Source: Bacteroidota bacterium (GTDB lineage: Bacteria; Bacteroidota; Ignavibacteria; UBA10030). Taken from it: a stretch of DNA of 64,000 nt. The notes beneath the pieces were generated by a model, which saw nothing but the letters and a program-made list of their open reading frames with translations, did no database searches and was not told where the DNA came from. A program made the translations under genes and the position numbers. The stretch spans positions 3,242 to 67,241 of the forward strand of contig JBBDYD010000191.1 of NCBI GenBank assembly GCA_040901865.1, written 5' to 3'. Positions 2,078 to 47,898 of the stretch are shown piece by piece (positions within the stretch are counted from its first letter, which is position 1; each line of letters opens with the position of its first letter).

Positions 2078-2081
2078 AACC

Positions 2082-6920: not shown

Positions 6921-7018
6921 CTTCGCCGCTCAAGACCATTTCGTTGAAAGTCAGCCGACTTTTCTGTATCCTGCCTCTTCATTCTCTCACCGCAATTCCA
7001 ACAATTCAGGATTAACCT

Positions 7019-8765: not shown

Positions 8766-8768
8766 TTC

Positions 8769-21240: not shown

Positions 21241-21254
21241 CAGGAGCATAAACC

Positions 21255-32067: not shown

Positions 32068-34031
32068 CACTTCATCCGCGGGATGTTGTTCTTGTGATAG
32101 CAGCTCTTGTTTGTCTGGCTCTCGCCGTGGCCATGGGATCGTTCGCTTATTATAGCAACGAGAGTTTCGGATTTCCGCTTGACGATCCCTGGATTCATCT
32201 GCAATTTGCAGAAAATCTTGCGGAGCACGGTGCCTTCTCATACTACAAAGATGAATTGGTCACCTCGGGATCGACGGCGCCGTTCTACACCCTTCTCCTT
32301 GCTGCGGGGTTGCTGGTCACGGACAATGAAATGGTTCTTAGTTACGTGATTGGCGTTCTGATGTTCCTGGTCGCCATCTTCCTATTCCTCAGGACTGCTG
32401 AGCACTCTTTCCGCGGCCGATCATGGCTTGCGTTTGGCGGAGTGTTCCTCCTTGCCATGGAACCGCGCCTTCACTGGGCGGCGTTGTCGGGGATGGAAAC
32501 GACACTCTTCGTTGCCCTTCTTCTCGCTGTGTTCCATTCGTACACGGGTCGAAAACCGGTTGCCTTGGGCATCAGCGCGGGCCTTCTGCTGTGGACACGC
32601 CCTGAAGCCGTGATCCTTTTTGGCGCCCTGATCGCCGATCTTGCGTTCAAGGCTTTTTTCGCAAACCGAACGGAAAAACGAGGGTTTGATGAATACTCCT
32701 GGCTGGTGAAAAGCGCCGTGATTGTCCTATTGCTGGGAGCCGGATACGCGTTATTCAATTTCGTCCTTTCCGGTTCGTTGTTGCCCAACACGTACGCGGC
32801 AAAGTTGAAATATTATTCGGGAACAGGAAGAAATTTCCCGGTTGAAGTGTTCCGTTATCTGACCGACGGTCATCTGATACTCCTCGCACCATTTTGCGGT
32901 GTGGGGATGGTCCTGACGATTTTTCAGCTGGCGAGAGGGAAGCATTCAGTCGGAATCATCCCCCTGCTGTTTGTGATTGGAATGTTTTTGGCGTACTGGA
33001 TCAAATTACCATACATGTACCAGAACGGGCGGTATTTGATGCCGGTGCTTCCCTTCTACCTGTTTCTCGGGTTGGTCGGAATAGATTGGCTCATAACAAA
33101 GGGGATTGGGTTTCTCAAGTTCTCCGTTAAGGAAAAATTGATTCCCCGAATCGGACTCGCCCTGCTCGGTATCATCGCCATTCAGTTTGGATACGGTACG
33201 TGGAAAGAGCGGAGTTCATACCAGGAATCCTGTAAATATATTTCGGACCGTCAGGTAAAAACGGCGCACTGGATTCGCGAACATCTTCCGGAAACAGCTG
33301 TCATTGCCACTCACGATGTTGGGGCAATTGCCTATTACTCTCAACGGAAGATCGTCGATATGGTGGGTCTTATCACTCCGGAGATGATTCCGCGCATTGG
33401 CAACCTGGAATTGCTGAAAGGATTTTTGCGGGAGCAACATGTAACGCACCTGGCACTTCTTCGGAATTGGTTTGAAGTTGTCAATGTCAATCCCTTGTTT
33501 CAAACAAACGAACTCACGCCGGAAATCATGGAAGTGTTTGCGTTTGAGCCGGATCGCACTCATTTTACAACGAGCCAGGTTGCTTGGTTGACGTCGACCG
33601 GATGGTATTATCTTGCGCGCGGCGATGTGCGGCAGGGAGGCCCCCTGGTGGAGAAGGCTGTTCAACTCGATTCGCTCTCATCCCGTGCTCATCACCATTT
33701 CGGCTGGGCGTTATCGCTGGCCGGGCAGATCGACAGGGCGGAAGAAGAATTCAGAAAGTCCATAGACCTGCATCCGTCGTACTGGCAGGCACATTTCGCC
33801 CTCGCCCAGGTTCCGCTCAGGCGTCAACAGCCGGCCGAAGCGATCACGCGGTTACAAAAACTCCTCGCTGCCAATCCGGATATGCTGGCTGTCTATCAAT
33901 CGATAGCCCAGATTTACGGGCAAATGGGAGATACAACAAAAGCACGGCGTTCATTGGAGCAATTCCAGAGAGAAATGGAAATGAGAGCAAAGCGGGAAGG
34001 CGAGAAACCTTATTCCGGTTTACCTCGTTAA
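32064..34031 (+). CDS. GT-C-fold (ArnT/PMT-like) membrane glycosyltransferase fused to C-terminal TPR repeats
   Basis: About 655 aa from ATG 32064, with an ATGA overlap. First-loop acidic motif FPLDDPWIHLQFAENL, a polytopic core, and a C-terminal ~130 aa of TPR repeats. Confidence 0.7.
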   Translation: MTLHPRDVVLVIAALVCLALAVAMGSFAYYSNESFGFPLDDPWIHLQFAENLAEHGAFSYYKDELVTSGSTAPFYTLLLAAGLLVTDNEMVLSYVIGVLMFLVAIFLFLRTAEHSFRGRSWLAFGGVFLLAMEPRLHWAALSGMETTLFVALLLAVFHSYTGRKPVALGISAGLLLWTRPEAVILFGALIADLAFKAFFANRTEKRGFDEYSWLVKSAVIVLLLGAGYALFNFVLSGSLLPNTYAAKLKYYSGTGRNFPVEVFRYLTDGHLILLAPFCGVGMVLTIFQLARGKHSVGIIPLLFVIGMFLAYWIKLPYMYQNGRYLMPVLPFYLFLGLVGIDWLITKGIGFLKFSVKEKLIPRIGLALLGIIAIQFGYGTWKERSSYQESCKYISDRQVKTAHWIREHLPETAVIATHDVGAIAYYSQRKIVDMVGLITPEMIPRIGNLELLKGFLREQHVTHLALLRNWFEVVNVNPLFQTNELTPEIMEVFAFEPDRTHFTTSQVAWLTSTGWYYLARGDVRQGGPLVEKAVQLDSLSSRAHHHFGWALSLAGQIDRAEEEFRKSIDLHPSYWQAHFALAQVPLRRQQPAEAITRLQKLLAANPDMLAVYQSIAQIYGQMGDTTKARRSLEQFQREMEMRAKREGEKPYSGLPR

Positions 34032-34038
34032 GAAGAAC

Positions 34039-35889
34039 ATGAACCTGCGATCCGTTTCCATACTCTTGTTCCTCATGGCCGCTGTCCTTCCGGTTTGGGC
34101 ACAAACTCCTGACGCCTCGGTCAAACTGCGTCTCGCTCAAAGTTTTGAGCGTTCCGGCGACTGGGAACGGGCGGTTCCGATCTATGAGTCGCTCCTTTTT
34201 GGAGAACCGCAAAATTTCGTTTACTACGATGCCCTCCGCCGCGGATATATCCAGCTAAAAGAGTACGACAAAGCGATCGAATTGATTCGCTACCGGCTCA
34301 CTCTTCAGCCCGACAGCCACTTGCTGTTATCTTCGCTCGGCGGAGTGTACTATCAGAAAGGGGAAGAGCAAAAAGCTGATTCTGTATGGCAGGCAATTCT
34401 TCGGTCTAATCCCTCGAATGTTAACCTGTACAGAATGATCGCCGGCCAGATGATGGAGTACAGGCTGTACGATCAGGCAATTTCCCTTTTTCTTCAGGCA
34501 CGTCAGGTAACAGGGGATGCGAACCTCTTTACGGGAGAACTTGCAAACCTCTATGGTGCATTTCAGCAATACGAGAATGCAGCCCGCGAGTACGTTCGCC
34601 TCTTAACGCAACAGCCCTCCCAGCTGGCCGATATTCAGTCACGGATGTCTCTTTTTTTGAATCGACCGGAAGCCGTCGCCTCCGCCACAAAGGCACTCCA
34701 GGAAGCACTTGATGCCAGAGGGAATCTCATTCCGCTTCGGCAACTCTACGCCTGGATTTTGATGGAAGGAAAGGATTATTCTGCCGCGTTGGATCAATTT
34801 AGAATCATTGACCGGTCTTCAAATGCCCGCGGTGTTGAGCTCTTCAATTTTGCCCAGCGGGCCCTGGAAGAGAGGGAACTGGGAACTGCAGTCAAGGCGT
34901 ATCAGGAAGTTCTGTCAATTTCTCCCCCGAAGGAGATTCAGCCTGCAGCGCGTCTCGGGCTTGCCAGAGCTACCGAAGAGTTGAGTATCGCCATCGACTC
35001 GACGCTTTCGCCGGGATCCGGGGAATCCTGGCCCGTGTCGGAGACCCGGCCGTCCATTGGCAGCGCCCTGGGTCTCTTCGAGGCAATCATCCGCGATTAT
35101 CCCGGGACACCCATTGCCGCCCAGGCATATTTCCGCATAGGTGTCATCAAAAGGGATCGATCTTTTGATCTCGATGGGGCGTTCGCGGCGTTTGCCAGCA
35201 TTCCGACGATTGTGCCCGACAGTCCCTTAGCCCTGGAAGGCTCTCTCGCAGCTGCAGGTGTCCTTATTGCCCGTAATGACCTGGCGGCCGCCAGGAATCG
35301 CTATATCGCGTTATTGGGGAACCGTGACCCCCTCCAGCGGGACCGGGTGCTCTTTCATCTGGCAGAGATTGACTACTTTACCGCCTCGTTCGATACTGCG
35401 CTCAGTGTGCTGAAGCGTCTTTCGCTGCAGTCATCGACCGACCTAGCGAACAATGCCCTTGAACTTCGGTACTTTATCGAAGAAAACATCGGCACGAGCA
35501 CTCAGGGACTGAAGCTGTTTGCTGCATCCGACTTACTCATGCGGCAGCGAAGATACCCGGAAGCTCTGGAGGGTTTTCGGGAAGTGGTCCGTCAGTTTCC
35601 CGCAGTGCTGCTTGTCGATGATGCGACGATCAGGATTGGCGAGCTGCAGCTTCTTCTGGAAAAACCCCTCGAGGCGGTGAACACATTTCGCTCGATGGTA
35701 AGCGACATGACCGCGAGCATCCTCCGCGACCGCGCCCTCATGCGGATTGGAGAAATCTATGAGCAGAGACTAAACAATCCTGTGTTGGCAATTGAAGTAT
35801 ATGAGGAATTGTTAAAACTGTTTCCCATGTCGCTCTATGCAGAAGAAGCCCGCCGACGGATGCGCAGGCTGCGGGGAGACGTAATCTGA
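34039..35889 (+). CDS. Secreted TPR-repeat protein
   Basis: 616 aa with a signal peptide (LPVWAQ) and TPR-like repeats throughout. Confidence 0.8.
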   Translation: MNLRSVSILLFLMAAVLPVWAQTPDASVKLRLAQSFERSGDWERAVPIYESLLFGEPQNFVYYDALRRGYIQLKEYDKAIELIRYRLTLQPDSHLLLSSLGGVYYQKGEEQKADSVWQAILRSNPSNVNLYRMIAGQMMEYRLYDQAISLFLQARQVTGDANLFTGELANLYGAFQQYENAAREYVRLLTQQPSQLADIQSRMSLFLNRPEAVASATKALQEALDARGNLIPLRQLYAWILMEGKDYSAALDQFRIIDRSSNARGVELFNFAQRALEERELGTAVKAYQEVLSISPPKEIQPAARLGLARATEELSIAIDSTLSPGSGESWPVSETRPSIGSALGLFEAIIRDYPGTPIAAQAYFRIGVIKRDRSFDLDGAFAAFASIPTIVPDSPLALEGSLAAAGVLIARNDLAAARNRYIALLGNRDPLQRDRVLFHLAEIDYFTASFDTALSVLKRLSLQSSTDLANNALELRYFIEENIGTSTQGLKLFAASDLLMRQRRYPEALEGFREVVRQFPAVLLVDDATIRIGELQLLLEKPLEAVNTFRSMVSDMTASILRDRALMRIGEIYEQRLNNPVLAIEVYEELLKLFPMSLYAEEARRRMRRLRGDVI

Positions 35890-37160
35890 TGATACGAGGC
35901 ATTTTCATAGGACTTCTGCTGGCTGGAAGCATTGTTTTCCTTCAGGGTCAAACGAAACTCCTGATTCCGATGGATGGCGGGCAAACCGACCATTTGAAAT
36001 CATATGGTGTGGCTTTCTGGCTCCTGGAACGCGGGGGCACGGTTGATTGGCTCCTCAATCATCGTGGGGGCTCGTTTCTGATGGACTACAGCGAGATTCT
36101 CGCGCGCGAATGCAGAGTACGGGCTGTGGGATTCGAGGAGATCGGAGCAGGACAGGCTGCTGTGATCCTTGCCGAGGTACAGCGCGATGACGCCAACACG
36201 GATATTGTGCGTCTGGAAAAAGCTCCCAGGATTGCTGTCTATGTTCCGCCGAATTTCAAACCCTGGGACGACGCCGTGACACTCGCGTTAGAATATGCCG
36301 AAATTCCCTATACGAAGGTTTGGGATGAGGAAGTACTTTCCGGCAAGTTGGCCGACTACGACTGGCTCCATTTGCACCATGAGGACTTTACCGGGCAATA
36401 CGGAAAATTCTATGCAAACTACCGGCATGCACAATGGTACATTCAGCAGCAAATGTTGTATGAGCGTGAAGCGAAGCGGCTTGGTTTTAGAAAAGTTTCC
36501 GATGAAAAGAAAGCCGTTGCACGGGCGATCAGGGAATATCTCGGTCAGGGTGGATTCATGTTTGCCATGTGCTCAGCTACCGACAGCTACGATATTGCCC
36601 TCGCAGCAGAGGGAGTTGACATTTGCGATGTCATGTTCGACGGTGACCCGCCCGACAGGGATGCGACGAGTCGGTTGGATTTCACCAAAACTCTCGCATT
36701 CGAGGGATTTGCGCTGGACAGGAATCCCCTGCGCTATGAGTATTCCGACATCGACATTCCTTCGAGTGACCCACCTCCGTTACGTGATCCAGGAACGGAT
36801 TATTTTACCCTGTTTGAATTTTCAGCCAAGTACGATCCTGTCCCAACGATGCTCACACAGAATCATGTGAACATGGTCAAGGGGTTTATGGGTCAAACAA
36901 CAGCATTTCGGAAGTCCCTGATTAAAAGAACGGTTGTGCTGCTGGCGGAGAGGGAGGGAACGGAAGAAGTAAAATATCTCCATGGGAATTTTGGACGAGG
37001 GACATTTACCTGGTACGGAGGTCACGACCCCGAAGATTACCAGCACGCGGTTGGTGATCCCCCGACGGATCTCAATCTCTACCGGAATTCACCGGGCTAT
37101 CGTTTGATCCTCAATAATGTACTGTTTCCAGCAGCAAAGAAGAAACAGCAGAAAACGTAG
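35889..37160 (+). CDS. Secreted conserved-looking protein, function unknown
   Basis: 423 aa. 1-nt TGATG overlap with the TPR gene. Signal peptide MIRGIFIGLLLAGSIVFLQGQ. No motif I can assign. Confidence 0.7.
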   Translation: MIRGIFIGLLLAGSIVFLQGQTKLLIPMDGGQTDHLKSYGVAFWLLERGGTVDWLLNHRGGSFLMDYSEILARECRVRAVGFEEIGAGQAAVILAEVQRDDANTDIVRLEKAPRIAVYVPPNFKPWDDAVTLALEYAEIPYTKVWDEEVLSGKLADYDWLHLHHEDFTGQYGKFYANYRHAQWYIQQQMLYEREAKRLGFRKVSDEKKAVARAIREYLGQGGFMFAMCSATDSYDIALAAEGVDICDVMFDGDPPDRDATSRLDFTKTLAFEGFALDRNPLRYEYSDIDIPSSDPPPLRDPGTDYFTLFEFSAKYDPVPTMLTQNHVNMVKGFMGQTTAFRKSLIKRTVVLLAEREGTEEVKYLHGNFGRGTFTWYGGHDPEDYQHAVGDPPTDLNLYRNSPGYRLILNNVLFPAAKKKQQKT

Positions 37161-37189: not shown

Positions 37190-37227
37190 AAGGGCCGGCT
37201 CTTGAAGGAGGAAGAGAGCCGGCCCTT
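37190..37227. terminator. Bidirectional terminator hairpin between convergent operons
   Basis: 13-bp GC-rich stem pairs 37190-37202 with 37215-37227, with a 12-nt loop. T-rich sequence follows on both strands. Confidence 0.7.
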
Positions 37228-37248: not shown

Positions 37249-38289
37249 TTACAGCCCAAGCTTTACAGCAACGACATGATTATCATCGAAGAACTCTGTT
37301 GCCCGAAAGGCATAGTCCACGGCGATACTCATGGTTGGGCTCAAGCTGAATTGAACGCCTGCCCCTGCCGTGTACGTGAACAGCGCTTCATCCGTCGGCA
37401 GGTCCGGAGAAAGGGCATAACCGGCCCTGAGGAAGAACATATTGTTGTAGGACCACTCACCGCCGATCCTGAAATCGTCATACGAGAAATTCTGATGTAC
37501 AAATGTTCCCGTGATCACGAAGTGCGATTGTTCCATCATGGGAATCTCGTACGACGATCCGAATTCAAGCGTCGATGGGAGGTCGAACTCCTGTGACGTG
37601 ATCCGGAGAGGCCTTGGCTGTGTACCTGGCTCCGTACCGGGAAGCTGAACAGACTGCTCCAGGTCCGGTCCGTCATATCTCATGCTCGGACCGAAATTCT
37701 TCATGACCACGCCGAATTTGAAACCCCGCAGCCCGGTCTGATATTGCAGACCCAGATCGAAGGCCAGGCCGGTTGCTGATTCTCTCATGATCGTCTCGGT
37801 CACAACTTTCATGGTGACGCCAAACGCGATCCGGTCGGTCATCATCTTGGAGAAGTTGAGTCCGAGGGTCATGAAATTGGGGGAATACGTCTCTCCCGTG
37901 CCATCGGGAAAATCATTGGTCGTAATGATAATGTCGCCGAAGTTGATCGTCTGGATGCTGAACCCCAGCGTTCCAAACTCACCGAGTTTCGCAGCAACGC
38001 CCGCGTATTCGACTTTAATATCCGCCAGGTAATTCATGTGGGCGAACATTGCCTCGGCAGAATTCGCTATGTTCGCCGCTCCTGCGGGATTCCAATACAG
38101 AGCTTCCACGCCCTGGATCCCCGAAACGTATGACCCTGCAAGGCCTATACCGCGGGCTCCGAGCGGAATTAAAAGCTCCTGCGCACCGGCCGTGCCCTTT
38201 CGTCGTCCGGATCCTGCGTCGGCCTGGGTAAACCCGACCAGCAACCCGAGGAGGAGCACCCAGATGGTGGTTGATTGTAATGTCTTCAT
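37249..38289 (-). CDS. PorV/PorQ-family outer membrane beta-barrel (T9SS-associated)
   Basis: 346 aa from ATG 38289, with an AGGAG RBS 7 nt upstream. Signal peptide, then the PorV-like N-terminal motif ELLIPLGARGIGLAGSY....EALYWNPAG. Beta-barrel pattern ending AVKLGL. Confidence 0.75.
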   Translation of the reverse strand: MKTLQSTTIWVLLLGLLVGFTQADAGSGRRKGTAGAQELLIPLGARGIGLAGSYVSGIQGVEALYWNPAGAANIANSAEAMFAHMNYLADIKVEYAGVAAKLGEFGTLGFSIQTINFGDIIITTNDFPDGTGETYSPNFMTLGLNFSKMMTDRIAFGVTMKVVTETIMRESATGLAFDLGLQYQTGLRGFKFGVVMKNFGPSMRYDGPDLEQSVQLPGTEPGTQPRPLRITSQEFDLPSTLEFGSSYEIPMMEQSHFVITGTFVHQNFSYDDFRIGGEWSYNNMFFLRAGYALSPDLPTDEALFTYTAGAGVQFSLSPTMSIAVDYAFRATEFFDDNHVVAVKLGL

Positions 38290-38332
38290 GATATACTCCT
38301 TTGGTTCTTTCATGTTCAAACGTTGTAAGAAC

Positions 38333-38358
38333 GCCGGAGAAGCGGAGGCCTCTCCGGC
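38333..38358 (-). promoter_or_regulatory. Intercistronic hairpin between the T9SS cargo gene and the PorV-like gene
   Basis: 8-bp stem GCCGGAGA/TCTCCGGC with a 10-nt loop. Starts 7 nt after the cargo stop codon on the minus-strand transcript. Confidence 0.4.
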
Positions 38359-38365
38359 GGAACTC

Positions 38366-41300
38366 TTACAGCCGATCCAGCCGCTCCTCGGGCTGGATCA
38401 CTCCAAGCTTGAGGATCTTTGAACCAATACCCTCAATTTCAATATGCACAAGATACATACCGCTGGCCACGGGAATTCCGTCGGTGTTTCGAAGGTCCCA
38501 TCGCTCGAATGTTGATCCTACGGCATGTTCGATCTGGTGCACGAGAACCCCGGCAAGTGAGAAAATGCGGATCTTCGTTTTTTCCTGTTGTGGGAGCCGG
38601 GTGAAAGTGACGAAACGGTTCAAAGGATCCCTTTCCATTGTCTGAGCGCCGAAGTACGGATTCGGAAACACGTTGATCATTTCGACGTCGGCCTTTGCCT
38701 GCGTGGTGCTGACAGAAGGCTGCAGGCCGCTTGTTGAGAATGTAAAGCGGTCATTTTGAGAATTGACGAAATTCGGTGTTACTGTCAAGATTTGCCCATC
38801 CTGCCAGTCAATCGTATAGCCTGTCCGAAGGAGGGGCCACCATCCGTAGAGGATGTCGAAATCGTCGTTCAGCAAGTTCTTCGACGTGTAGGCCGGATCA
38901 GGAGTAGCGCCGCTGTAGGTGCTGTTCAGAATGAACATATACTCCCGGTCTGACGAAGCAGTTGTCGGACCCCAGAGCGCATCAGCCGCCGGGCCTGCGT
39001 TTTGCTCGACATAGACAACATTCAGCTGACGGGCAGGGCTTGAAGTAACATCCCAGACCTCGAAATGTTGTTGCGTGTAATCCACATATCCGTAGCTGGG
39101 AGTACCTCCCCGGACATACCGATAGGCCCTTTGACCATCGGCATTCGTTCGGAAGCGGATTTCAATCGTGACGAACTGGTCGGGAGTGCAGGTACCGCCC
39201 CAGAAGTTCGGTCCCGTGCCGAAACCACCACCGAGGATATCGCCGCCCCAGTTAACCCCGTTGAACCATCGCGTTCCTCCTGCGAACGTGTATTCCTTCA
39301 CAACGGGCGCGGGGCCGACTACTTTCATCTGGAGGCCATCGGCGATCAAGTGCATGCCATCCCCGGTCTGATTGTCCTGGTCTTCAATAACCGGAGTGGC
39401 CGTGGTCAGATCCTGAAGAGTCCAAAGGAATCCGCCGGAACCTGCATCGAACGCAAACGAGACTTCGTAATTATGGCCTGTGACTTTCGTCGGATCGATG
39501 ACAAGTGCGTAGGCGTTTCCATCACTCGATCCGATATGCACCGTTTTGATCGTGTCGCCCGAGGCGCTGTTCCACCGGGTGCCGGGAGATGCCGCATGCG
39601 GCCGCGCGGTGACGATGCTTTGAGCGCTCTTCAGCATTCTGGGGACACCCCAGGAATTGTATGCATAGGAGGCTATGACAAAGTAATACGGGTTGCCATT
39701 GACAAGGGGAAGCCCTGAAATAGCATCCATCTTTGTCGAAAACCGATGCTGAAGTCCCGAGTTCGTGCCTTTGACAACGGTCACTTCCACGTTCTCGCCG
39801 TACGCAGGATCATACTTGAAGTCCTTGATATCCAGGACCAGATTATCCAGGTCGTAGGTGGCAAGGGTTCTTATGACGGTCGGTGCCGACGGATGATCGA
39901 CCTGATACACTACGTATCCCTCGAAATCATACGAGGTTGGCAGGCCGGTTGATGTGTCGACCTTGATCAGATCGGCCGCTGTATAGGTTTCTGCATTGTC
40001 TTCCCACACCAGCACCACTTCACGATCAAGCTCGGTGAGCGTCGTCGTCGGGACCGGAGGCGAAGGAGGCAGAGCAAAGTTGATATCGTAAGCGGTTTGT
40101 GCGCTCTTGTCAACTTCTTTGAGCACAGCAACACTGCTCTTGTTGTTGCCGCCTGTTGCGATCAGCACCCCAAACACCACTTCCTGCGTATCACCCGGGG
40201 AAAACATGAACGGTCCGGAGGACATCAAGAAGCGGCGGTCACCGGGAGCCCGTACTGTTGGGCTGGATTCACTCCATCCGGATCCCGTTACAGGATCGCC
40301 CGGAAAAACGAACCGGGTGGGCTGGGAGGTCATTGGATTGATGAACGGAGACCCATCCTGATATCTGCCCGTCATGTAATTGAATGCCTCTTCTGCATTC
40401 TCAGGATCTCTCTGGGGGAATGTCGATCCGTTGATGTAGTAGGCAAACGCGAACATCGGAAGATTTTTGAAATCTGGAATCTTCCGTCCAGAAACCAGCG
40501 CTGTATCACCGACAGACGGAACGATTGGGCCTTGGAAGAAGTCGCGACCGATGGCCGGAGGCGGTGATCCATAGGTGAGGTCGTTGTTATCGGCATTCCA
40601 GCAATAGCCAAGGCTCAGCGTGGTATCGCAGCCGACATAATCATCGCCCGCGTCGCCGAGATCCGGATCGTCCCAAAGGGCGATGAAGGTGGAATCAACC
40701 GCGGTTGTGCCTTTGTGAATGATCTTTGCTTTCACAAACATCATGTCGCCGAAGGCATCGGGGCGGTCATATCCCCACGCCGTGAACTGAACTTCGATGC
40801 CCAGCGGCAAAGTGCTGAAGATATTTGCATGCAGGGCTGCATCCATGTCATTGAACACGCACCACATGGTGATATCGCCCATTAACAGAGGATTTCCCGC
40901 GGAATCCACAGGTGCACCGTCGGCAACAGGCCAATTGAGATAGTCATCGCCGGGATTCAAGAGATCCGCGCGCGTGATTTTGTACCATCGATACTGAGGA
41001 AGCGACGCATCATCAGCCACGCCCGACGGAAGGATCTTTCCGGGTGTGAATTCCGAAGCGTATTCCGCAGCAGCGGTCCGGAACTGGCCGCTGACCTTCC
41101 CTGCAACCCAGATTCCCGCGGCATAGTCGATGAGCTTGAATGTTCCTTTGGGCCATTCCATGCCGGAGTTTCCGGTAACGACCTGACTCACATACTGGCC
41201 GTTGTTTCCCATGATGCTATTGATGCGGTTCCCGTCGAAGTTTTGATATTCGAGGGTTGCCGTCTTGCCCAGCCGGGTGACCGGCTTCCGGCCCTTCCTG

Positions 41301-41383
41301 TCACCGCCATCGGCGATAACAAGACCGAACACGAGAAGCAGAATAACGCCCAGTGCCAGGCGATGATTCATGATCTGTTTCAT
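38366..41383 (-). CDS. Large secreted protein of unknown function carrying a T9SS type-A C-terminal sorting domain
   Basis: 1005 aa with an AAGGAG RBS and a signal peptide. The C-terminal ~90 aa match the Por_Secre_tail pattern (VFPNPY...KIRIFSLAGVLV...ASGMYLVHIE...KILKLGVI). No catalytic motif is recognisable. Confidence 0.85.
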   Translation of the reverse strand: MKQIMNHRLALGVILLLVFGLVIADGGDRKGRKPVTRLGKTATLEYQNFDGNRINSIMGNNGQYVSQVVTGNSGMEWPKGTFKLIDYAAGIWVAGKVSGQFRTAAAEYASEFTPGKILPSGVADDASLPQYRWYKITRADLLNPGDDYLNWPVADGAPVDSAGNPLLMGDITMWCVFNDMDAALHANIFSTLPLGIEVQFTAWGYDRPDAFGDMMFVKAKIIHKGTTAVDSTFIALWDDPDLGDAGDDYVGCDTTLSLGYCWNADNNDLTYGSPPPAIGRDFFQGPIVPSVGDTALVSGRKIPDFKNLPMFAFAYYINGSTFPQRDPENAEEAFNYMTGRYQDGSPFINPMTSQPTRFVFPGDPVTGSGWSESSPTVRAPGDRRFLMSSGPFMFSPGDTQEVVFGVLIATGGNNKSSVAVLKEVDKSAQTAYDINFALPPSPPVPTTTLTELDREVVLVWEDNAETYTAADLIKVDTSTGLPTSYDFEGYVVYQVDHPSAPTVIRTLATYDLDNLVLDIKDFKYDPAYGENVEVTVVKGTNSGLQHRFSTKMDAISGLPLVNGNPYYFVIASYAYNSWGVPRMLKSAQSIVTARPHAASPGTRWNSASGDTIKTVHIGSSDGNAYALVIDPTKVTGHNYEVSFAFDAGSGGFLWTLQDLTTATPVIEDQDNQTGDGMHLIADGLQMKVVGPAPVVKEYTFAGGTRWFNGVNWGGDILGGGFGTGPNFWGGTCTPDQFVTIEIRFRTNADGQRAYRYVRGGTPSYGYVDYTQQHFEVWDVTSSPARQLNVVYVEQNAGPAADALWGPTTASSDREYMFILNSTYSGATPDPAYTSKNLLNDDFDILYGWWPLLRTGYTIDWQDGQILTVTPNFVNSQNDRFTFSTSGLQPSVSTTQAKADVEMINVFPNPYFGAQTMERDPLNRFVTFTRLPQQEKTKIRIFSLAGVLVHQIEHAVGSTFERWDLRNTDGIPVASGMYLVHIEIEGIGSKILKLGVIQPEERLDRL

Positions 41384-41432
41384 TGTGTGATCTCCTTAGC
41401 AAATCCGAATGATGTCATTCCATGCGTGACCA

Positions 41433-44258
41433 TCACAGGTCAACTCGCACGCCGAGGCGCATTTGCCGGGGTGTTCCCCAGTTTCCGGGAGTTCCGAGGC
41501 GGTATCGATATCCATCCACCGCTTCCTGTCCCTCTGCGGCCGCGTACGCCTGGCCGTCCGTTGTTCTGAAATATCCGTCATCATCCGGCAGGCCGGTTTG
41601 ATTGTAGACAAACGTGACGTTCTTCGCGTTGGTCAGATTCAGCATCCACAGGTAGATATTCAGATTCGTGGTGCCAAAGGTGAAGGTTTTGTCGATCTTC
41701 AGATCGAGCTGGAAGTTCCAGGGCGAGTACGATTGATTCATCGCCGCTACCGGTTGTTCCCAGCCGGGTCCAAAAAGAATCGTTGTGGCACGTGCAGGGG
41801 TGTAGGGTCGCCCGCTTCCAAAGGTCAACAACAGATTTGCACCAACCTGCTCGAGGGGCTTCATATCAAACATGGTTGGCCCGTCTCCGACTTCTGTACG
41901 GAAGTCGAAGTTGATGCTGCCGGTATGTCGCTGATCGAAATCCAGGGGCGACACGTAGGTCGGAAAGTTCGTTCCGAGCCATGCGATATTAAAGTTCGTA
42001 TTTGCGGCGGAACCCGTTCCCGAGGCATATTGCAGTGTGTAGTTGACCGTTGCAGAGACCCGGTTGGTGCGGCGAAGCGCGAACGCCAGGGTGAGTCCCT
42101 TGACCGTCCCGAAGTCACCGTTGGTGAATTGAGCATACGACACCGGAGTTGCAAACACCGTGCGAAGCTGAACGAGATCGCTGATGTCTTTGTAGTAGGT
42201 CGTAATGTCAAGACTCGCGTTCTGCCCGAGCTGCTGACTGAACCCGATCTCATATGTGATTGTCTTCTCGGGTTTCAGACTTGGATTTCCTACCGTCACG
42301 AAGTTTCCGGCGGTCAGTTGCTGTACTAACTGCGTGGTGCTGGTATAGAGCCTGTTCAACTCGACATGCTGAATAAAATGCCCGTACTGCGCATGGAAGA
42401 CCGTTTGATCTGTGACGGGGAAGGAGAAACCGAACCTGGGGCTGATGGTGGTGCTTGCTTCACCTGCCTCATAGTTGTCTTCCGCAATTGTCTGGTAGTT
42501 TCCTGCCGAGACTATGCGAATATTGGTCGGATCCTTCAAACGATCCACGTTAGCGTTGATGTAATCCCACCGCAATCCGATGTTCAGAACGAGGTCCGGG
42601 AGCTCGATCTTGTCCTGGGCATAGATGGCAGCGATGATGGGATGAGGTGCGCTGTTACGACTGCCGTCGTCAAGGAACGTTTTGCGTCCTTTGGCAACAC
42701 CATCCACCGCCATACCGATATTGTCGGTGTAAGCATTCCGGAGGAGCTCCTCGCGGGTGAATGTCGGACTGGTGGATTGAACCTGTGCGAACCGCGCGGT
42801 GGAGGTCGTCCAGTACCGAATCGTGTTGTATCGATATTCGCCGCCGACCTTCAGGAGATTCGTCTGGTCAAACTGATGGGTGAAATCGACCTTTGCACTG
42901 AGGTAGGAAGACCGATTGTAGGTGTAACCGAAATTGACGAATCCCGGCCCGGCAAAAAGATTGTGAAACAGATTTGCAGGGTTGCGGCCTGGTCCGCTGA
43001 GGACAGGATTCTTTGTAGTATCTCCATACGATTCTATGTCGTCGAACCATATGGGATCACCCTGTTCCGTTTCGGTCTGAAACCAGCTCGCCATGACACT
43101 GTAGAATGTGGAGGCACCCAGCGTGTGTGTTGCCTTGCCGTAATAGGCATGGGTCGCGCGCTCACGCTCTTGATTCCGGTCGGCATTGTAAACGGAGTTA
43201 TACTGGCTGAAGACGCGATCATTCAGGAAATTGGTGAACCCGCCTACTCTGATGTTCATGGGTTTGTAATCCCAAATGAGGTTGGAATTCAACGTAAATT
43301 CTTTGGAAGTATTATCGGGGAGATAATACTTCCGCCCTACTGTTGGGCTTCCATCAAGTGCATAGGTGTACTCAGACCCGATGTGGAATCGCAGCGATTG
43401 ACCGGCAAAAGGAATTGGTCCGCCTGCGGAAACGTGGAACGTCGATGTTCCGTACGAACGGAAACCATTCGGTCCCTGCAACCCATCTTTGATGCGCTGC
43501 ATTGGGTTGGATGACGCTTCCCGGTGGTAGAACATCTCGTCCGAGATCACGCCCAGCGAAAGAGTATACTTGGCGGTTCCGCCTTTGGTGGTAGCGCTGA
43601 CGAGACCCGCATTGGCAAACCCGTACTCGGCGCTGAATCCGCCTGCCTGGTAGGTCACCTCTTCGATGGATTCATTGACCACCGCTCCTGCGTTGGCGCT
43701 GTTGAACTGATTGTTCACGATCATGCCGTCAATAAAATAGGCCACTTCGTCGGATCGGCCGCCGCGGACATACAGACTGTTGCCAAGTTTCACGATTCCC
43801 GGCTGAAGAGCAATAACGTCCAGGTAACCGCGGGTCGGAATGTTCTTTATGTCTTCCGCACGCACGGTCATGATGGCGTTGGTCGCGTTCTTATTGACGA
43901 GAGGCCTGTCGGCAACGATCTCGATCTCGGGAACCGCGATGACTTCACTCGCAAGCGGGACGTTGAGTTCCGTCGTCAATTCCGAAGTAACAATGAGGTT
44001 GCTGATATTCACCGTCTGGTAACCGATGAAACTCACGCGCAGCGTATAACTTCCGGGCCGCACGTTCAGAATGAAATAATTCCCGTCAATGTCTGTGGCG
44101 GATCCTAACGTCGTCCCCACGATAATGACATTGGCGCCGATGAGAGCTTCACCGGACTGGGAATCTGTGACCTTGCCTGCGATCTTTCCCGACCCCTGCG
44201 CAAGCGCAAGCGAGGTGCAGAGAATGGCAAGAGAAAGAATGGAAAGGAAACGGTTCAT
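41433..44258 (-). CDS. TonB-dependent receptor with an N-terminal CarboxypepD_reg-like domain (SusC-like architecture)
   Basis: 941 aa from ATG 44258, with an AGGAAGGA RBS. Signal peptide, GKIAGKVTDSQSGEALIGANV...TDIDGNYFILNVRPGSYTLRVSFIGY, a plug domain (YVRGGRSDEVAYFIDGM...GGFSAEYG) and a large barrel. Confidence 0.9.
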   Translation of the reverse strand: MNRFLSILSLAILCTSLALAQGSGKIAGKVTDSQSGEALIGANVIIVGTTLGSATDIDGNYFILNVRPGSYTLRVSFIGYQTVNISNLIVTSELTTELNVPLASEVIAVPEIEIVADRPLVNKNATNAIMTVRAEDIKNIPTRGYLDVIALQPGIVKLGNSLYVRGGRSDEVAYFIDGMIVNNQFNSANAGAVVNESIEEVTYQAGGFSAEYGFANAGLVSATTKGGTAKYTLSLGVISDEMFYHREASSNPMQRIKDGLQGPNGFRSYGTSTFHVSAGGPIPFAGQSLRFHIGSEYTYALDGSPTVGRKYYLPDNTSKEFTLNSNLIWDYKPMNIRVGGFTNFLNDRVFSQYNSVYNADRNQERERATHAYYGKATHTLGASTFYSVMASWFQTETEQGDPIWFDDIESYGDTTKNPVLSGPGRNPANLFHNLFAGPGFVNFGYTYNRSSYLSAKVDFTHQFDQTNLLKVGGEYRYNTIRYWTTSTARFAQVQSTSPTFTREELLRNAYTDNIGMAVDGVAKGRKTFLDDGSRNSAPHPIIAAIYAQDKIELPDLVLNIGLRWDYINANVDRLKDPTNIRIVSAGNYQTIAEDNYEAGEASTTISPRFGFSFPVTDQTVFHAQYGHFIQHVELNRLYTSTTQLVQQLTAGNFVTVGNPSLKPEKTITYEIGFSQQLGQNASLDITTYYKDISDLVQLRTVFATPVSYAQFTNGDFGTVKGLTLAFALRRTNRVSATVNYTLQYASGTGSAANTNFNIAWLGTNFPTYVSPLDFDQRHTGSINFDFRTEVGDGPTMFDMKPLEQVGANLLLTFGSGRPYTPARATTILFGPGWEQPVAAMNQSYSPWNFQLDLKIDKTFTFGTTNLNIYLWMLNLTNAKNVTFVYNQTGLPDDDGYFRTTDGQAYAAAEGQEAVDGYRYRLGTPGNWGTPRQMRLGVRVDL

Positions 44259-44661
44259 GGTGATATCCTTCCTGGGTGATGAGAAACAAATAAATTCGTT
44301 GACATTGTACCTGTCCTGCCGTTTGTCCGTATCGGAAAGCAGAAAAACAGGAATCATTTGCAATGATTGATGAAAGAAGGATGATGCGCGCTTGTCGTAA
44401 CAACATCCGTACCCTTCGCTGATTGTTGAAAGGGCGGATTTTCAATGGAAATCGACTCCGCAAAAAATCGGATTGTAAGTTTCGAGAATGGCCGCATGAA
44501 CATTTCTTTTCATAATTTAATACCGCCTCCTGTTTTCGCATTCCAATTTGTGACGAGGCACAGTTGAGTGTGATGAACGGAGCGAGTCAGCAAAGATTCT
44601 CGGAATGGTTACATTCATTGTGTAGAAAAAATGAATAGTTCTGCACCTTATCCCGTGACAA

Positions 44662-44883
44662 ATGGTTAAATACGCAACGCGTAAAGAACTTCTCAAGTTT
44701 GATAAAGACTGTCCCGTGGAATTCCCTCCTAATTTGATGTACCTTTCAAAATTGGACAACCATCGTGACCCCCTCCTTGGAGGCTTCCGCAAAACCAGCG
44801 AGGTGATCATGTGGAAACGTAATCAGGTAGTCATGTGGGTTGAGGTTGAGTCTCTCGACTATTCGATGATCTACAATCAGTGA
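44662..44883 (+). CDS. Possible small protein (73 aa) in the long divergent intergenic region
   Basis: Balanced composition, while the antisense frame is Arg/Ser-rich and shadow-like. No obvious RBS and no family recognised. Confidence 0.3.
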   Translation: MVKYATRKELLKFDKDCPVEFPPNLMYLSKLDNHRDPLLGGFRKTSEVIMWKRNQVVMWVEVESLDYSMIYNQ

Positions 44884-45052
44884 TTCCATGGTTATTTTCT
44901 TACTATTCACCACGCCTTTCATCTGTCCAGTCTTTACTTTTCGGGAAGATTTGTCTATGCTCAGGAGAGGCGATGATTTTTTGAACAGCCTGCCGCAACT
45001 GAACCCCGAAACATCCGTAAACTCATTGTCTATTTTTTTCAGAGGAGATTGT

Positions 45053-46414
45053 ATGAAACGACTTTTGCTGGTCCTTTTCCTTCCCCTGGCGCTTCTCCGG
45101 GCTCAGGAAGTGAGTTTGAGCGTTCCGTACGAAAGAATGGAACTCCGAAACGGTCTGAATGTTATTTTGCACGAAGACCATACAATCCCGAGGGTTTCTG
45201 TGAACATGTGGTATCATGTGGGTTCTGGTCATGAGAAACCCGGAAGAACCGGGTTCGCTCACTTATTTGAACATATCATGTTTGAAGGATCGGGAAACGT
45301 GCCGGAAGGGATGTTTGATGTGTGGCTCGAAGCGGCAGGAGGTGACAACAACGGATCGACAAACGGGGATCGGACAAACTACTATGAAAACATGCCCGGG
45401 AATGCTCTTGAGCTCGCCCTCTTCCTCGAATCAGACAGGATGGGGTACCTCCTGGATGCCATGTCGCCCCAAAAAGTCGACGGTCAACGAGATGTCGTAA
45501 AGAACGAACGCCGGCAACGGTATGAAAATCAACCGTACGGAATGGTGTGGATTGTTATGGCACAAAACATCTATCCCAAAGACCATCCGTATTCGTGGCC
45601 AACCATCGGATCGATGGCAGACTTGTCGGCTGCCAGTTATGAAGACGTGGTGGAATTTTTCAAGAAGTATTATGTGCCAAACAACACAAGCATGGTGATT
45701 GCCGGCGATATCAACGTGGAACAGACCAAGAAATTGGTAACGAAATGGTTTGATGAGATTCCGGCGGGAAAACCAAATGAGCCGATTGATCCCCCGGCCT
45801 CTTCGATAACGTCGGAAAAACGTCTCATGATGGAAGACCGCGTTCAACTTCCACGGTTCTACATGTCCTGGCTGACACCACCCTTGCTTACACCCGGCGA
45901 TGCTGAAATGGACATTCTTGCAAACATCCTGGCCGGCGGCAAGAATTCGAGACTCCATAAAAGATTGGTCTATGATTTACAGATTGCGCAGGATGTTTCG
46001 GCATTTCAATCCTCCGCTTCACTTTCTTCGTCCTTCTGGGTCATCGCCACTGCCAGGGCTGGTCATACTCTCGCGGAGCTGGAGACAGTCATCCAGGAGG
46101 AAATCAATCGTTTGAAGGTCGATGGGCCGACAGACCGGGAGGTACAGAGGGCAATAAACCAGTTTGAAGCAGCCTTTCTCGATGGCCTCGAAACCTCGGC
46201 CGGCAAGGCCGATCAATTGAACAACTATTTTGTCAGAACGGGAAACCCGGACTATTTCAACGAGGATCTTGCCCGCTATAAAGCTGTCCGGCGAAACGAT
46301 GTTCAGGCGATGGCACGGTCGTTCCTGCCCGACGGCGCGCGCGTGGTCCTGAGTATTGTCCCGCAGGGGAAAAAGGATCTTTCAGCCGCGGCGAGTATGG
46401 AGGTGAAACCATGA
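45053..46414 (+). CDS. M16 family zinc peptidase, catalytic subunit (second pair)
   Basis: About 453 aa from ATG 45053, with an AGAGGAG RBS. Signal peptide MKRLLLVLFLPLALLRAQ and zinc motif HLFEH (GFAHLFEHIMFEGS). Confidence 0.92.
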   Translation: MKRLLLVLFLPLALLRAQEVSLSVPYERMELRNGLNVILHEDHTIPRVSVNMWYHVGSGHEKPGRTGFAHLFEHIMFEGSGNVPEGMFDVWLEAAGGDNNGSTNGDRTNYYENMPGNALELALFLESDRMGYLLDAMSPQKVDGQRDVVKNERRQRYENQPYGMVWIVMAQNIYPKDHPYSWPTIGSMADLSAASYEDVVEFFKKYYVPNNTSMVIAGDINVEQTKKLVTKWFDEIPAGKPNEPIDPPASSITSEKRLMMEDRVQLPRFYMSWLTPPLLTPGDAEMDILANILAGGKNSRLHKRLVYDLQIAQDVSAFQSSASLSSSFWVIATARAGHTLAELETVIQEEINRLKVDGPTDREVQRAINQFEAAFLDGLETSAGKADQLNNYFVRTGNPDYFNEDLARYKAVRRNDVQAMARSFLPDGARVVLSIVPQGKKDLSAAASMEVKP

Positions 46415-47898
46415 ATCAGTCAATACAGTGGAAGAAGAAAAAGGATTGCGGGATGATCAAGAGAATGGTAAACCTCGTGGTTCTATTGTTGATAATGAGC
46501 GGAGGAGCGGTCGGCCAAAAGCCCGACCGGACTTCTCCGCCGTCGCTGGGGAATCCGGGTACGCTGAGCTTACCTGCAATTCAGAAATTCAAGCTCTCAA
46601 ACGGTCTTCCCGTCGTGCTGATGGAGAAACGGGGGGTTCCTGTCGTGCAGATCAATGTACTCGTGAAAACCGGCTCTGCAATGGAGCCAACGGACAAGTC
46701 CGGAGTTGCAAGCATGACGGCGGCCATGCTCGACGAAGGTGCGGGTACGCACTCTGCGTTGGAATTGGCTGACGCGATTGATTTCCTCGGCGCCAGGATT
46801 ACCACGAGCTCCGGTCAACACACGAGCGCCATAGCCCTGCATACACCGGTGTCCAAGCTCGACGCGGCCCTTGCTCTGATGGGCGATATCGCCATACGGC
46901 CGACATTTCCCGCTGAAGAACTTGACCGTTTGCGGAAAGAGCGGATGACGACCCTGGTGCAATGGCACGACCAGCCGGGGACCATCGCATCAGTTGCCTT
47001 TAGCCAGACACTCTATGGTTCCCGACATCCCTATGGTGTACCTTCGATCGGAAACGAACAATCGCTTCGGGCAATGAAAGCGACGGATCTCAAGCGTTTC
47101 CATGAAGCAAATTACAACCCCAACAATGTCACGCTTATTGTGGTTGGAGATGTCCGGAAATCGGATATTCTGAAGAAGCTCGAATCAGTGTTCGGCGTAT
47201 GGAAGGGAAGAACCACCGGTTCGGTGAATTGGCCCGACGCAGCCCAGGTGGAGCGAAGGATCATCTATCTTATCGATAAACCGGACGCAGCGCAATCCGA
47301 AATCCGCATTGGACGAATCGGCGTTTCGCGCATGACCGAAGATTATTTTCCGCTTGTCGTCATGAACACGATTCTCGGCGGATCGTTTACATCGAGGTTG
47401 AACCAAAACCTGCGCGAAACCCATGGATACTCTTACGGGGCCGGGTCCTTTTTTGACATGCGCCCCCTCCCGGGACCGTTCATGGCATATTCTGCCGTAC
47501 AGACAAACGTGACGGACAGCGCATTGGCGGAGTTCTTCAAGGAATTTAGGAACATGCAGAAATCATTGCCGGATGAGGAATTCGAAAAGGCGAAGAACTA
47601 TATCGCCCTTGGTTATCCGGACAATTTCGAATCAGTAAGTCAGATCGCGGGGATGCTTGCGGAGATGATCACGTTTAATCTTCCGGACAACTATTTTAAC
47701 ACATACGTGAACAAGGTCCTTGCAGTCAAAAAAGCGGATGTTGAGCGCGTGGCTCGGGAGTACGTTTTGCAGGATAAAATGGCAGTGATTGTGGTGGGAG
47801 ACAGAGCGGTGATAGAAAAGGGAATACGGGGACTGAACCTCGGAACGGTGCAAGTGAGATCGATTGAAGACATTCTTGGAAAACCACCGAAGTTGTAG
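46411..47898 (+). CDS. M16 family peptidase-like protein lacking HxxEH (non-catalytic partner)
   Basis: 495 aa with an ATGA overlap with the upstream gene; an alternative start lies at 46453. The equivalent site reads GVASMTAAMLDEGAGT. Confidence 0.85.
   Translation: MNQSIQWKKKKDCGMIKRMVNLVVLLLIMSGGAVGQKPDRTSPPSLGNPGTLSLPAIQKFKLSNGLPVVLMEKRGVPVVQINVLVKTGSAMEPTDKSGVASMTAAMLDEGAGTHSALELADAIDFLGARITTSSGQHTSAIALHTPVSKLDAALALMGDIAIRPTFPAEELDRLRKERMTTLVQWHDQPGTIASVAFSQTLYGSRHPYGVPSIGNEQSLRAMKATDLKRFHEANYNPNNVTLIVVGDVRKSDILKKLESVFGVWKGRTTGSVNWPDAAQVERRIIYLIDKPDAAQSEIRIGRIGVSRMTEDYFPLVVMNTILGGSFTSRLNQNLRETHGYSYGAGSFFDMRPLPGPFMAYSAVQTNVTDSALAEFFKEFRNMQKSLPDEEFEKAKNYIALGYPDNFESVSQIAGMLAEMITFNLPDNYFNTYVNKVLAVKKADVERVAREYVLQDKMAVIVVGDRAVIEKGIRGLNLGTVQVRSIEDILGKPPKL

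Follow-up and report, generated by a model that had tools for sequence, protein, structure and literature searches.

A conserved receptor, secreted all-β protein and PorV-family barrel that look like an undescribed outer-membrane machine of FCB bacteria

We analysed three adjacent genes that encode a TonB-dependent receptor, a 1005-aa secreted all-β protein (the type 1 cargo) and a PorV/PorQ-family barrel, in a window that comprises the whole 64,000-nucleotide stretch of DNA. The three genes are a strictly conserved unit, and the trio looks like an undescribed outer-membrane machine whose role is most likely the capture and import of a nutrient. [quoted passage not shown] Within this module, the association of the proteins in a complex, the substrate and the way in which transport runs are points of inference. 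A search of the literature found no paper describing the receptor, cargo and barrel trio. The locus contains the following features (window coordinates).

44259..45052, no strand: upstream intergenic region of 794 bp, shared with a divergent M16 peptidase pair
41433..44258, minus strand: TonB-dependent receptor, 941 aa from ATG, with Pfam and NCBIfam matches
38366..41383, minus strand: 1005-aa secreted all-β protein (type 1 cargo), from the translation; the end coordinate takes in the stop codon
40064..41260, minus strand: cargo N-terminal domain (residues 42-440), a β-supersandwich and the hallmark of the superfamily
38699..40063, minus strand: cargo Ig/FN3-like β-domains (residues 441-895), from secondary structure and Foldseek FN3/MG-like matches
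38369..38698, minus strand: cargo sorting domain (residues 896-996) and 9-residue tail QPEERLDRL, from profiles, Foldseek and conservation
38333..38358, minus strand: intercistronic RNA hairpin in the cargo/barrel gap, with an 11-bp stem and a 4-nt loop
37249..38289, minus strand: PorV/PorQ-family outer-membrane barrel, 346 aa from ATG, with an NCBIfam match
37190..37227, no strand: GC-rich hairpin between convergent genes, with a 13-bp stem

The three minus-strand ORFs run from receptor through large protein to barrel with intergenic gaps of 49 and 76 nt, and the coordinates, both gaps, the 794-bp region and the two hairpins reported in the first-pass annotation were all borne out. The upstream region has this length provided that 45053 is the start of the divergent M16 peptidase gene, a choice that yields the signal peptide MKRLLLVLFLPLALL. 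This region is presumably the promoter site of the unit; it contains patches conserved in a comparison with locus L001, matches no Rfam family and has σ70-like sites at no more than chance level. At the intercistronic hairpin, the stretch between the two genes gives a fold z of -3.9; three relatives (L001-L003) preserve the hairpin, and one C:G to G:C change among them is compensatory. The hairpin might, as the first-pass annotation suggested, set the cargo:PorV stoichiometry. The 13-bp stem between the convergent genes was confirmed (fold z = -4.5) and is likely the terminator of the unit; a simple terminator scan made no call there because the 12-nt loop is over its limit. Elsewhere, the window encodes many peptidases.

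Among the 120 related loci with sufficient flanking DNA, 117 keep the order receptor, cargo and PorV-family barrel on one strand, with a receptor orthologue directly upstream and a barrel directly downstream of the cargo gene. Trio loci represent eight or more lineages of FCB bacteria, among them Ignavibacteria, Calditrichota, KSB1, Zixibacteria, Latescibacteria, Eisenbacteria and Marinimicrobia, with identities of 31-46% and median intergenic gaps of ~18 nt. Three paralogues (L011, L127 and L138) are found without receptor and barrel neighbours. No further neighbour gene is conserved among the trio loci. Unlike classical polysaccharide utilisation loci, the trio has no linked gene for a hydrolase, a regulator or an inner-membrane transporter, which counts, like the three lone paralogues, against the module that we favour. 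In some Ignavibacteria, the trio adjoins lipopolysaccharide genes.

The type 2 cargo, a distant paralogous family related to type 1 over the N-domain and the first FN3 domain (hhalign probability 100%, E = 3.6e-44), occurs in the same trio arrangement in four further genomes. Receptors and barrels cluster by module type and not by genome, and the trio has therefore diversified as a unit, a pattern that co-evolving partners would show. The earlier proposal that the three genes are one unit is thus upheld by an order kept across phyla and by co-diversification into types 1 and 2. Could they nevertheless be neighbours with separate functions, transcribed together by chance or from some unrelated cause, with the barrel as an extra general PorV? 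Membership of the barrel in the general PorV/PorQ family would fit this, but the gene order persists across phyla while all other neighbours change, and all three partners split in parallel into the two types. This synteny and co-diversification make such a reading highly improbable, and the several barrel copies per genome, together with scores that reach neither the PorV nor the PorQ equivalog cut-off, also argue against it.

The receptor consists of a signal peptide, a CarboxypepD_reg-like N-terminal extension, a putative TonB box, a plug and a 22-strand-type barrel, in that order. Matches to CarbopepD_reg_2 (68.8 bits, above cut-off), Plug (32.6 bits; Pfam cut-off 23.9) and the TonB_dep_Rec barrel (83.5 bits; Pfam cut-off 27) all passed, in agreement with the N-domain and plug first read from the sequence, and Pfam OMP_b-brl_4 is matched as well at 53.7 bits. 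Ahead of the plug lies the putative TonB box, EIEIVADRP, which shows partial conservation across phyla, and the plug motifs are conserved (63 orthologues). Judging from its plug, putative TonB box and barrel, the receptor resembles an energised transporter. It had also been described as SusC-like, and the N-terminal architecture is indeed common with SusC, but membership of the SusC/RagA family (TIGR04056) was rejected: the score of 73.6 bits falls short of the 368.25-bit cut-off, and the match is confined to the first ~200 residues, with model positions 2-207 alone aligned. Downstream of the receptor there is no SusD/RagB-like lipoprotein gene, as judged by the lack of a SusD-like Pfam or NCBIfam match, the lack of a lipobox cysteine and the all-β fold.

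The same receptor might work outwards, as Oar of Myxococcus reportedly does for the protease PopC, secreting the cargo or helping to mount it while the PorV-like barrel anchors it, in a self-contained unit that imports nothing. Its N-terminal extension, plug and barrel are the architecture of Oar (PMC6434023), and the OMP_b-brl_4 match, the position of its gene directly before the cargo gene and the absence of import-linked genes nearby would suit such a device. However, the type IX-type sorting domain of the cargo already supplies an export route, protein secretion by TonB-dependent transporters has one experimental case behind it, and the Oar-like architecture is common in Bacteroidetes and hence not diagnostic (PMC6434023). 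We consider an export or assembly device decidedly unlikely.

The cargo has more than 2,820 homologues and is here the founding member of a large family, which is without a Pfam or NCBIfam model. In the AlphaFold2 model (pLDDT 87), the N-domain is followed by a remainder that is all-β. The N-domain itself is modelled with a pLDDT of 95.6 and a pTM of 0.93, carries the motifs MEWPKG, DPDLGD..DD.VGCD and DRRFLMSSGPF..PGDTQEVV, and belongs to a family of 6,459 clusters at 50% identity (E <= 1e-3). The very high conservation of the N-domain between phyla is a point against the favoured module, since it could reflect a housekeeping or structural role and not just a nutrient-specific one. In Foldseek, the domain matches N-domains that are non-catalytic, those of GH116, GH94 and dextran dextrinase (TM ~0.4, 8-12% identity). 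We rejected a GH116, GH94 or GH15-like enzyme, as only the N-terminal β-sandwich aligns, the (α/α)6 catalytic domain is missing and there are no sequence matches. Searches with Pfam, NCBIfam and Foldseek on models found no enzyme family or known catalytic motif, in agreement with the first-pass reading, which saw no catalytic motif in the 1005-aa protein. The cargo is without a catalytic domain.

The N-domain nevertheless contains ~30 invariant columns, many of them Asp, Glu, Arg and Gln, including E197, D239, D241, D248, D281, D363, D382, R384 and Q400, and several invariant residues are common to the type 2 cargo. The cargo might be a new type of glycan- or peptide-processing surface enzyme, with invariant acidic residues as its active site and a receptor that imports the products; the resemblance of the fold to domains accompanying glycoside hydrolases and phosphorylases, and the peptidases in the window, are in line with this idea. 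We regard it as unlikely, given that the structural matches are to non-catalytic N-terminal sandwiches with no (α/α)6 domain, that the searches gave neither a known catalytic motif nor a known family, and that clustered Asp residues in a β-sandwich frequently form calcium sites.

Within the cargo, residues 701-895 vary most and are richest in indels (conservation profile 0.43, compared with 0.62 in the N-domain and sorting domain) and are a candidate specificity region. The paralogous module types with this variable region resemble specificity variants, and the conservation across phyla of the plug motifs and, in part, of the TonB-box region argues for an energised transporter. Both points speak against a structural component, that is, a cargo acting as a coat, adhesin or envelope-maintenance factor with the receptor-like barrel as a second anchor or scaffold that transports nothing. 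We find this role very doubtful, even with an all-β cargo whose Ig/FN3 domains are of the kind usual in adhesins and S-layer proteins, some weak Foldseek matches to an S-layer protein and adhesin repeats, a module that is near-universal and strongly conserved in its carrier phyla, and the adjoining lipopolysaccharide genes of some Ignavibacteria in its favour.

The C-terminus had been called a clear type-A sorting domain. This description has support at the level of the family and the fold; the window protein by itself scores just below the cut-off of TIGR04183 (21.2 bits against 23) and below that of PF18962 (17.2 bits against 27), a point against the favoured module. TIGR04183 is matched by 33 of 44 cargo homologues (E < 0.01; best E = 1e-10), the PorZ C-terminus by 40/44 and PorU by 9/44. 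The model has a seven-strand β-sandwich at residues 904-995, as in type-A sorting domains, and the top Foldseek match for the whole cargo model is PorZ (5m11). Unlike in canonical sorting domains, a nearly invariant tail, QPEERLDRL, sits after the last strand, starting at the point where PorZ stops. The cargo sorting domain most resembles those of PorZ and PorU, which stay uncleaved; these are the two known proteins with retained sorting domains (PMC10947112, PMC10202324). Because of this likeness, a role of the barrel as a shuttle is less likely than one as a permanent anchor.

The PorV/PorQ-like identity of the barrel was corroborated by the family model NF033709 (181.8 bits; cut-off 90), which all 33 of 33 module barrels match, and F. 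johnsoniae PorV (6h3i) matches the barrel with E = 1e-8. It scores below the equivalog cut-offs of PorV (NF033710, 65 bits against 250), PorQ (NF033711, 89.9 against 220) and PorV2 (NF052325, 75.1 against 325); PorQ is its best-scoring equivalog, and it is orthologous to neither PorV nor PorQ. The 33 module barrels reach best E-values of 8.5e-33 for PorV, 6.5e-36 for PorQ and 7.6e-25 for PorV2, a comparison in E-values and not bit scores, in which they are taken as below the cut-offs. TIGR03519 (PorP/SprF) weakly matches 3/33 module barrels, and the BamG model matches the barrel weakly (E = 1e-4, 21.6 bits against 250). Each genome has two or more copies. A single housekeeping PorV was rejected on the basis of the missed PorV, PorQ and PorV2 cut-offs, the copy number and the grouping of barrels by cargo type, and the first-pass view that the barrel is more than the genome's lone housekeeping PorV gained support. 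The barrel is a member of a subfamily dedicated to this module.

In the import module that we favour, the receptor, cargo and barrel all have Sec signal peptides, as their sequences show, and the outer membrane would take up the receptor and the PorV-family barrel. By means of its C-terminal sorting domain, the cargo would pass the outer membrane in the translocon of type IX secretion. With the exception of Chlorobiota, every FCB phylum examined is reported to have the SprA translocon (PMC12611786), and Por sorting domains occur on Melioribacter enzymes (PMC3534657); against this, the window ORFs that we scanned included no core gene of this secretion system. By analogy with PorQ for PorZ and with PorP/SprF barrels for type-B cargo, the dedicated barrel would collect the sorting domain and retain it uncleaved as a non-covalent surface tether. 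On the surface, the cargo may cooperate with the TonB-dependent receptor encoded just upstream, its N-terminal supersandwich and sorting domain being the constant parts that would serve the machinery and its variable β-region (residues ~700-895) the part that would contact the ligand. The receptor would then draw on TonB energy to import the captured substrate, whole or as a fragment.

Several known systems share parts of this arrangement. In BamG-BamH of the Bacteroidota BAM complex, a 14-strand FadL-like barrel is likewise a platform that holds an extracellular protein (PMC12578637), but the BamG model matches the trio barrel only weakly, the partner there is a lipoprotein, and there is no receptor-cargo-barrel operon. 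Oar of Myxococcus xanthus has the N-terminal extension, plug and barrel of the trio receptor and is functionally tied to a secreted protein, PopC (PMC6434023). Myxococcus xanthus is from a different phylum, PopC has neither a type IX sorting domain nor a PorV-like partner, and the likeness to Oar is one of architecture. Type-B cargo systems (SprB-SprF, PG1035-PorP) also have a cargo gene followed by the gene of its own FadL-like barrel, a surface anchor (PMC9143113), whereas the trio barrel is of the PorV/PorQ family, its sorting domain is type-A/PorZ-like and a receptor is part of the unit.

Closer parallels are PorQ-PorZ and PorV-PorU, in which one particular surface protein is bound, and kept, by a PorV-family barrel through its uncleaved C-terminal domain (PMC10947112, PMC10202324), as we propose by analogy for the trio. 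The cargo family's sorting domain matches the PorZ C-terminus best and PorQ is the best-scoring equivalog of the barrel, which is nonetheless well under the PorQ cut-off. The cargo lacks the β-propellers of PorZ, with the C-terminal ~80 residues alone matching, and the type 1 cargo has a conserved PEERLD tail that is absent from PorZ. The trio also includes a TonB-dependent receptor, and its proposed function is other than secretion-system housekeeping.

As in SusC/SusD (RagA/RagB), a TonB-dependent barrel with a CarboxypepD_reg-like domain and plug is encoded directly before an extracellular partner, a genome has several paralogous copies, and the partner has constant and variable parts. Unlike in SusC/SusD, the trio receptor misses the SusC/RagA model and matches at the N-terminus only, the partner is an all-β protein with a sorting domain and no SusD-like TPR lipoprotein, a PorV-family barrel is an obligatory third gene, and hydrolases or regulators are not linked. 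The first-pass idea that a T9SS protein has replaced the SusD lipoprotein does not hold as a substitution and is an analogy only, because genuine SusCD systems coexist in related lineages (PMC3534657, PMC12611786). Within that analogy, a T9SS-delivered, barrel-held extracellular partner would stand in the module where the SusC/SusD pair has its surface lipoprotein.

Translation and folding reproduced the three-gene layout proposed in the first-pass annotation, including the ORF positions, the gaps, the 794-bp intergenic region and both hairpins. The genes for a TonB-dependent receptor, a large protein (the cargo) and a PorV-family barrel lie on the minus strand at 37249-44258, with intergenic gaps of 49 and 76 nt.

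Features of the module in the window
ATG at 44258, minus strand: receptor gene, translation of 941 aa
41383-38366, minus strand: large-protein gene, translation of 1005 aa
ATG at 38289, minus strand: PorV-family barrel gene, translation of 346 aa
38333-38358: intercistronic hairpin with an 11-bp stem; fold z of the intergenic stretch = -3.9
37190-37227: hairpin with a 13-bp stem, between the barrel gene and the convergent gene ending at 37160; fold z = -4.5

Translation of the divergent upstream gene from 45053 reads as a signal peptide, making this its likely start and thus giving the 794-bp region. The intercistronic hairpin is retained in three relatives (73-89% protein identity), with one compensatory C:G to G:C change. 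No riboswitch or known RNA was found in the 794-bp leader or elsewhere within the window, and a scan for σ70 promoters and terminators, which missed the long-loop terminator, did not rise above chance. The upstream region (44259-45052) exceeds its counterparts in the related loci L001-L003 by ~240 bp and contains short unsupported ORFs (44517-44810 and 44149-44541). Short patches close to the start of the receptor gene are conserved with these loci, one of them a TTTG-containing element just 5' of the ribosome-binding site.

Two scans, each with one genome per species, yielded at least 575 and at least 587 related loci, and the three window proteins served as queries against every fetched locus. 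In 117 of the 120 loci whose flanks were long enough, the cargo gene is immediately preceded by the receptor gene and immediately followed by a PorV-family barrel gene, all on the same strand. The median intergenic gap within these trios is ~18 nt, and the trio proteins of related loci are 31-46% identical to those of the window. Carriers, as labelled in their records, are Ignavibacteria/Melioribacteraceae, Calditrichota, KSB1, Zixibacteria, Latescibacterota, Eisenbacteria, Marinimicrobia and Cloacimonadota; complete genomes with the module include OZ251458.1, OX638329.1, OY782765.1 and that of Melioribacter sp. Ez-97. The three exceptions to the trio order (L011, L127 and L138) are extra paralogues, and the genome of L127, a second copy, also has a full trio. 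These rare cargo paralogues with no adjacent receptor or barrel are found at L127:5001-8276, L011:3680-11114 and L138:2792-8271; in L011 two of them stand in tandem beside another sorting-domain protein (Sortilin/SdrD-like). Clustering of all flanking ORFs identified no conserved neighbour besides the trio, the next commonest occurring in 13 loci, and gave no hint of a substrate. Just 3' of the barrel, ~13 loci of Ignavibacteria type have a gene for a ~455-aa GWxTD-domain protein (L052:12615-13988; L086:9467-10825; L084:4934-6319), often followed by a lipid A acyltransferase-like and a heptosyltransferase-like gene.

Several genomes hold two complete trios (L129 with L131, L105 with L106). A second trio stands behind the first in the Marinimicrobia locus L080 and consists of a receptor, a 791-aa protein from a family of at least 215 members and a PorV-family barrel. 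In three distant genomes this distant, type 2 cargo is again flanked by genes for a CarboxypepD_reg-type receptor and a PorV-family protein.

Type 2 modules (receptor, ~780-aa distant cargo paralogue, PorV-family barrel)
L080:8084-14445
L082:3709-10296
L083:3800-10379
L084:6879-13480

In L080 and L084 the type 2 module comes directly after the type 1 module, that of the window cargo and its relatives. In L082-L084, genes for three more proteins come after it: a ~1350-aa Por_Secre_tail protein, a TPR protein and another one with a sorting domain. Profile-profile comparison relates type 2 cargo to the window protein over its N-domain (residues 42-440) and first FN3-like domain (probability 100%, E = 3.6e-44, 22% identity). 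Receptors of one type from different genomes resemble each other more than do receptors of the two types in a single genome (706 vs 147 bits), and the same holds for barrels (282 vs 152 bits). Since both group by type and not by genome, the duplication of the whole trio is ancient, its parts diverging together, and this co-divergence is the strongest sign of functional coupling available at the sequence level. Synteny across phyla and co-diversification thus bear out the proposal that the three genes form a unit.

The receptor exceeds the Pfam/NCBIfam cut-offs for CarbopepD_reg_2, Plug and the TonB_dep_Rec barrel. It is not a member of the SusC/RagA family, whose model (TIGR04056) reaches 73.6 bits vs 368 and covers only the N-terminal 200 residues. 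Elsewhere in the window, a 637-aa ORF (8769-10682) with only a weak TonB-dependent-receptor barrel match (E = 1.8e-7) may encode a second, shorter receptor-like outer-membrane protein.

The 1005-aa protein has >2,820 homologues, of which almost none has a name or a Pfam domain. Pfam, NCBIfam and PDB profile searches returned only sorting-domain matches, confined to the C-terminus, or chance-level ones, with no known enzyme or solved relative. An AlphaFold2 model built with 44 homologues is confident (pLDDT 87), all-β and multidomain, and Foldseek with the whole model gave nothing beyond domain-level β-sandwich likeness. Modelled alone, the N-domain forms a β-supersandwich (pLDDT 95.6) whose closest matches among solved structures are N-terminal, non-catalytic domains from dextran dextrinase, GH116, GH94 and cyclic glucan synthase (Foldseek E = 1e-8 to 1e-6, TM about 0.4, 8-12% identity), while the remainder of the protein is Ig/FN3/MG-like. 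The (α/α)6 catalytic domain of these enzymes is missing from the large protein. The N-domain contains ~30 invariant residues, many of them acidic and including the cluster D239/D241/D248/D382/R384, and shares several motifs with type 2. Along the cargo, conservation peaks in the N-domain and the sorting domain (0.62) and falls to its lowest in residues 701-895 (0.43), where insertions are most frequent.

Used alone as a query, the N-domain retrieved 6,459 clusters (50% identity), of which 1,999 had E <= 1e-30, and neither Pfam nor NCBIfam has any model for it. Its position is almost always directly after the signal peptide. Among P0351 (2726 aa), P0244 (1788 aa), P0241, P0243 and P0281, all N-domain-bearing proteins, it is present in two copies or lies deep inside a giant protein, well away from the N-terminus, and the domain is therefore also present in other architectures.

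The type-A sorting domain had been called clear; it has support at the level of the family, but in the window protein Por_Secre_tail stays below the cut-offs of both TIGR04183 (21.2 vs 23) and Pfam (17.2 vs 27). The C-terminus of PorZ matches the window protein at E = 9e-8, and across 44 family members it matches 40, TIGR04183 33 (best E = 1e-10) and PorU 9. PorZ and PorU are type IX proteins with uncleaved C-terminal domains, which stay bound to PorQ and PorV, respectively (PMC10947112, PMC10202324). Type 1 cargo ends, after the last sorting-domain strand, in a nearly invariant tail, (Q)PEERLD(RL), at residues 997-1005 (window 38369-38395); this tail begins past the end of PorZ, is missing from PorZ and type 2 proteins, and may be a docking peptide.

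The window barrel belongs to the PorV/PorQ family (181.8 bits vs a cut-off of 90), as do 33/33 module barrels tested, and its sole solved relative is F. johnsoniae PorV (E = 1e-8). It falls clearly under the PorV, PorQ and PorV2 equivalog cut-offs; the best E-values among the 33 barrels (8.5e-33, 6.5e-36 and 7.6e-25, respectively) we read as below them too. Together with multiple copies per genome and grouping by cargo type, these scores rule out a housekeeping PorV or PorQ and sustain the view of a dedicated barrel.

The window is ordinary chromosome (mreBCD-pbp2-rodA, pyrF, fpg, rsgA, ettA, argC and several peptidase genes). Its standard cell-shape cluster at 147-5625 (mreB, mreC, an unscanned ORF where mreD would be expected, pbp2 and rodA) shows that it belongs to the core chromosome rather than to a mobile element. 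The peptidase genes at 19885-22652, 22833-24977 and 45053-47898 comprise an S46 Dpp7-like dipeptidyl-peptidase gene and M16 (insulinase-like) genes, the latter in two separate tandem pairs. One of these pairs runs divergently from the module, and this neighbourhood is common only to the three closest relatives. Convergent to the module, 31944-37160 encodes a 423-aa protein without a family match and two large proteins with TPR repeats (695 and 616 aa). The closest genomes are a 'Bacteroidota' metagenome-assembled genome (89-94% identity) and Ignavibacterium sp. (74-81%).

No type IX secretion core genes occur among the part of the window ORFs scanned and no SprA-sized ORF in the fetched loci, so that the presence of this system in these phyla rests on the literature. 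SprA is reported in FCB phyla except Chlorobiota, as are SusCD systems (PMC12611786), and in Melioribacter Por-sorted enzymes occur alongside SusCDE (PMC3534657). Because SusCD is already present in trio-bearing lineages, we reject the suggestion that the trio replaces SusD in phyla lacking SusCD, and regard it as an additional system.

The best-supported mechanism goes beyond the observed signal peptides, domain identities, synteny, co-diversification and conservation pattern. The cargo would be exported through type IX secretion; the cognate barrel would capture it and keep it through its sorting domain, as in the PorQ-PorZ (PMC10947112) and PorP-type-B (PMC9143113) cases; and cargo and receptor would act together, their likeliest task being to capture a substrate for import. 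Its main rivals give the receptor an outward, Oar-like role (PMC6434023), make the large protein a new surface enzyme, or see only a structural component of the surface. In a further reading that we consider unlikely, the trio would not be an importer but a self-contained, TonB-powered machine of the cell surface, its receptor working outward or mechanically, Oar-like, to deliver, mount or actuate a barrel-held β-protein. If true, this would directly link TonB energy to type IX-style surface display, in an arrangement older than the divergence of the FCB phyla. The proposal of a three-protein complex is directly testable because a cultured organism, Melioribacter sp. Ez-97, has the module (L086: receptor 1961-4969, cargo 5001-8282, barrel 8297-9331).

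Each component is of a known kind; the obligatory trio, its paralogous types and the N-domain superfamily are new to the literature searched, full-text searches having returned no paper that describes them. If the three proteins truly form one complex, this would provide a function for a very large superfamily without a model and for an entire subfamily of barrels that genome annotation now labels 'PorV/PorQ family' and leaves unexplained, in phyla that are abundant in the environment and poorly studied (Ignavibacteria, Marinimicrobia, KSB1, Zixibacteria, Latescibacteria, Eisenbacteria and Calditrichota). The principle of cargo retention by a cognate barrel, exemplified by PorQ-PorZ and PorP-type-B, would then reach further than the secretion machinery. 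As one complex, the trio would also represent a third way to equip a TonB-dependent transporter with an extracellular partner, next to lipoprotein lids (SusD/RagB) and stand-alone receptors.
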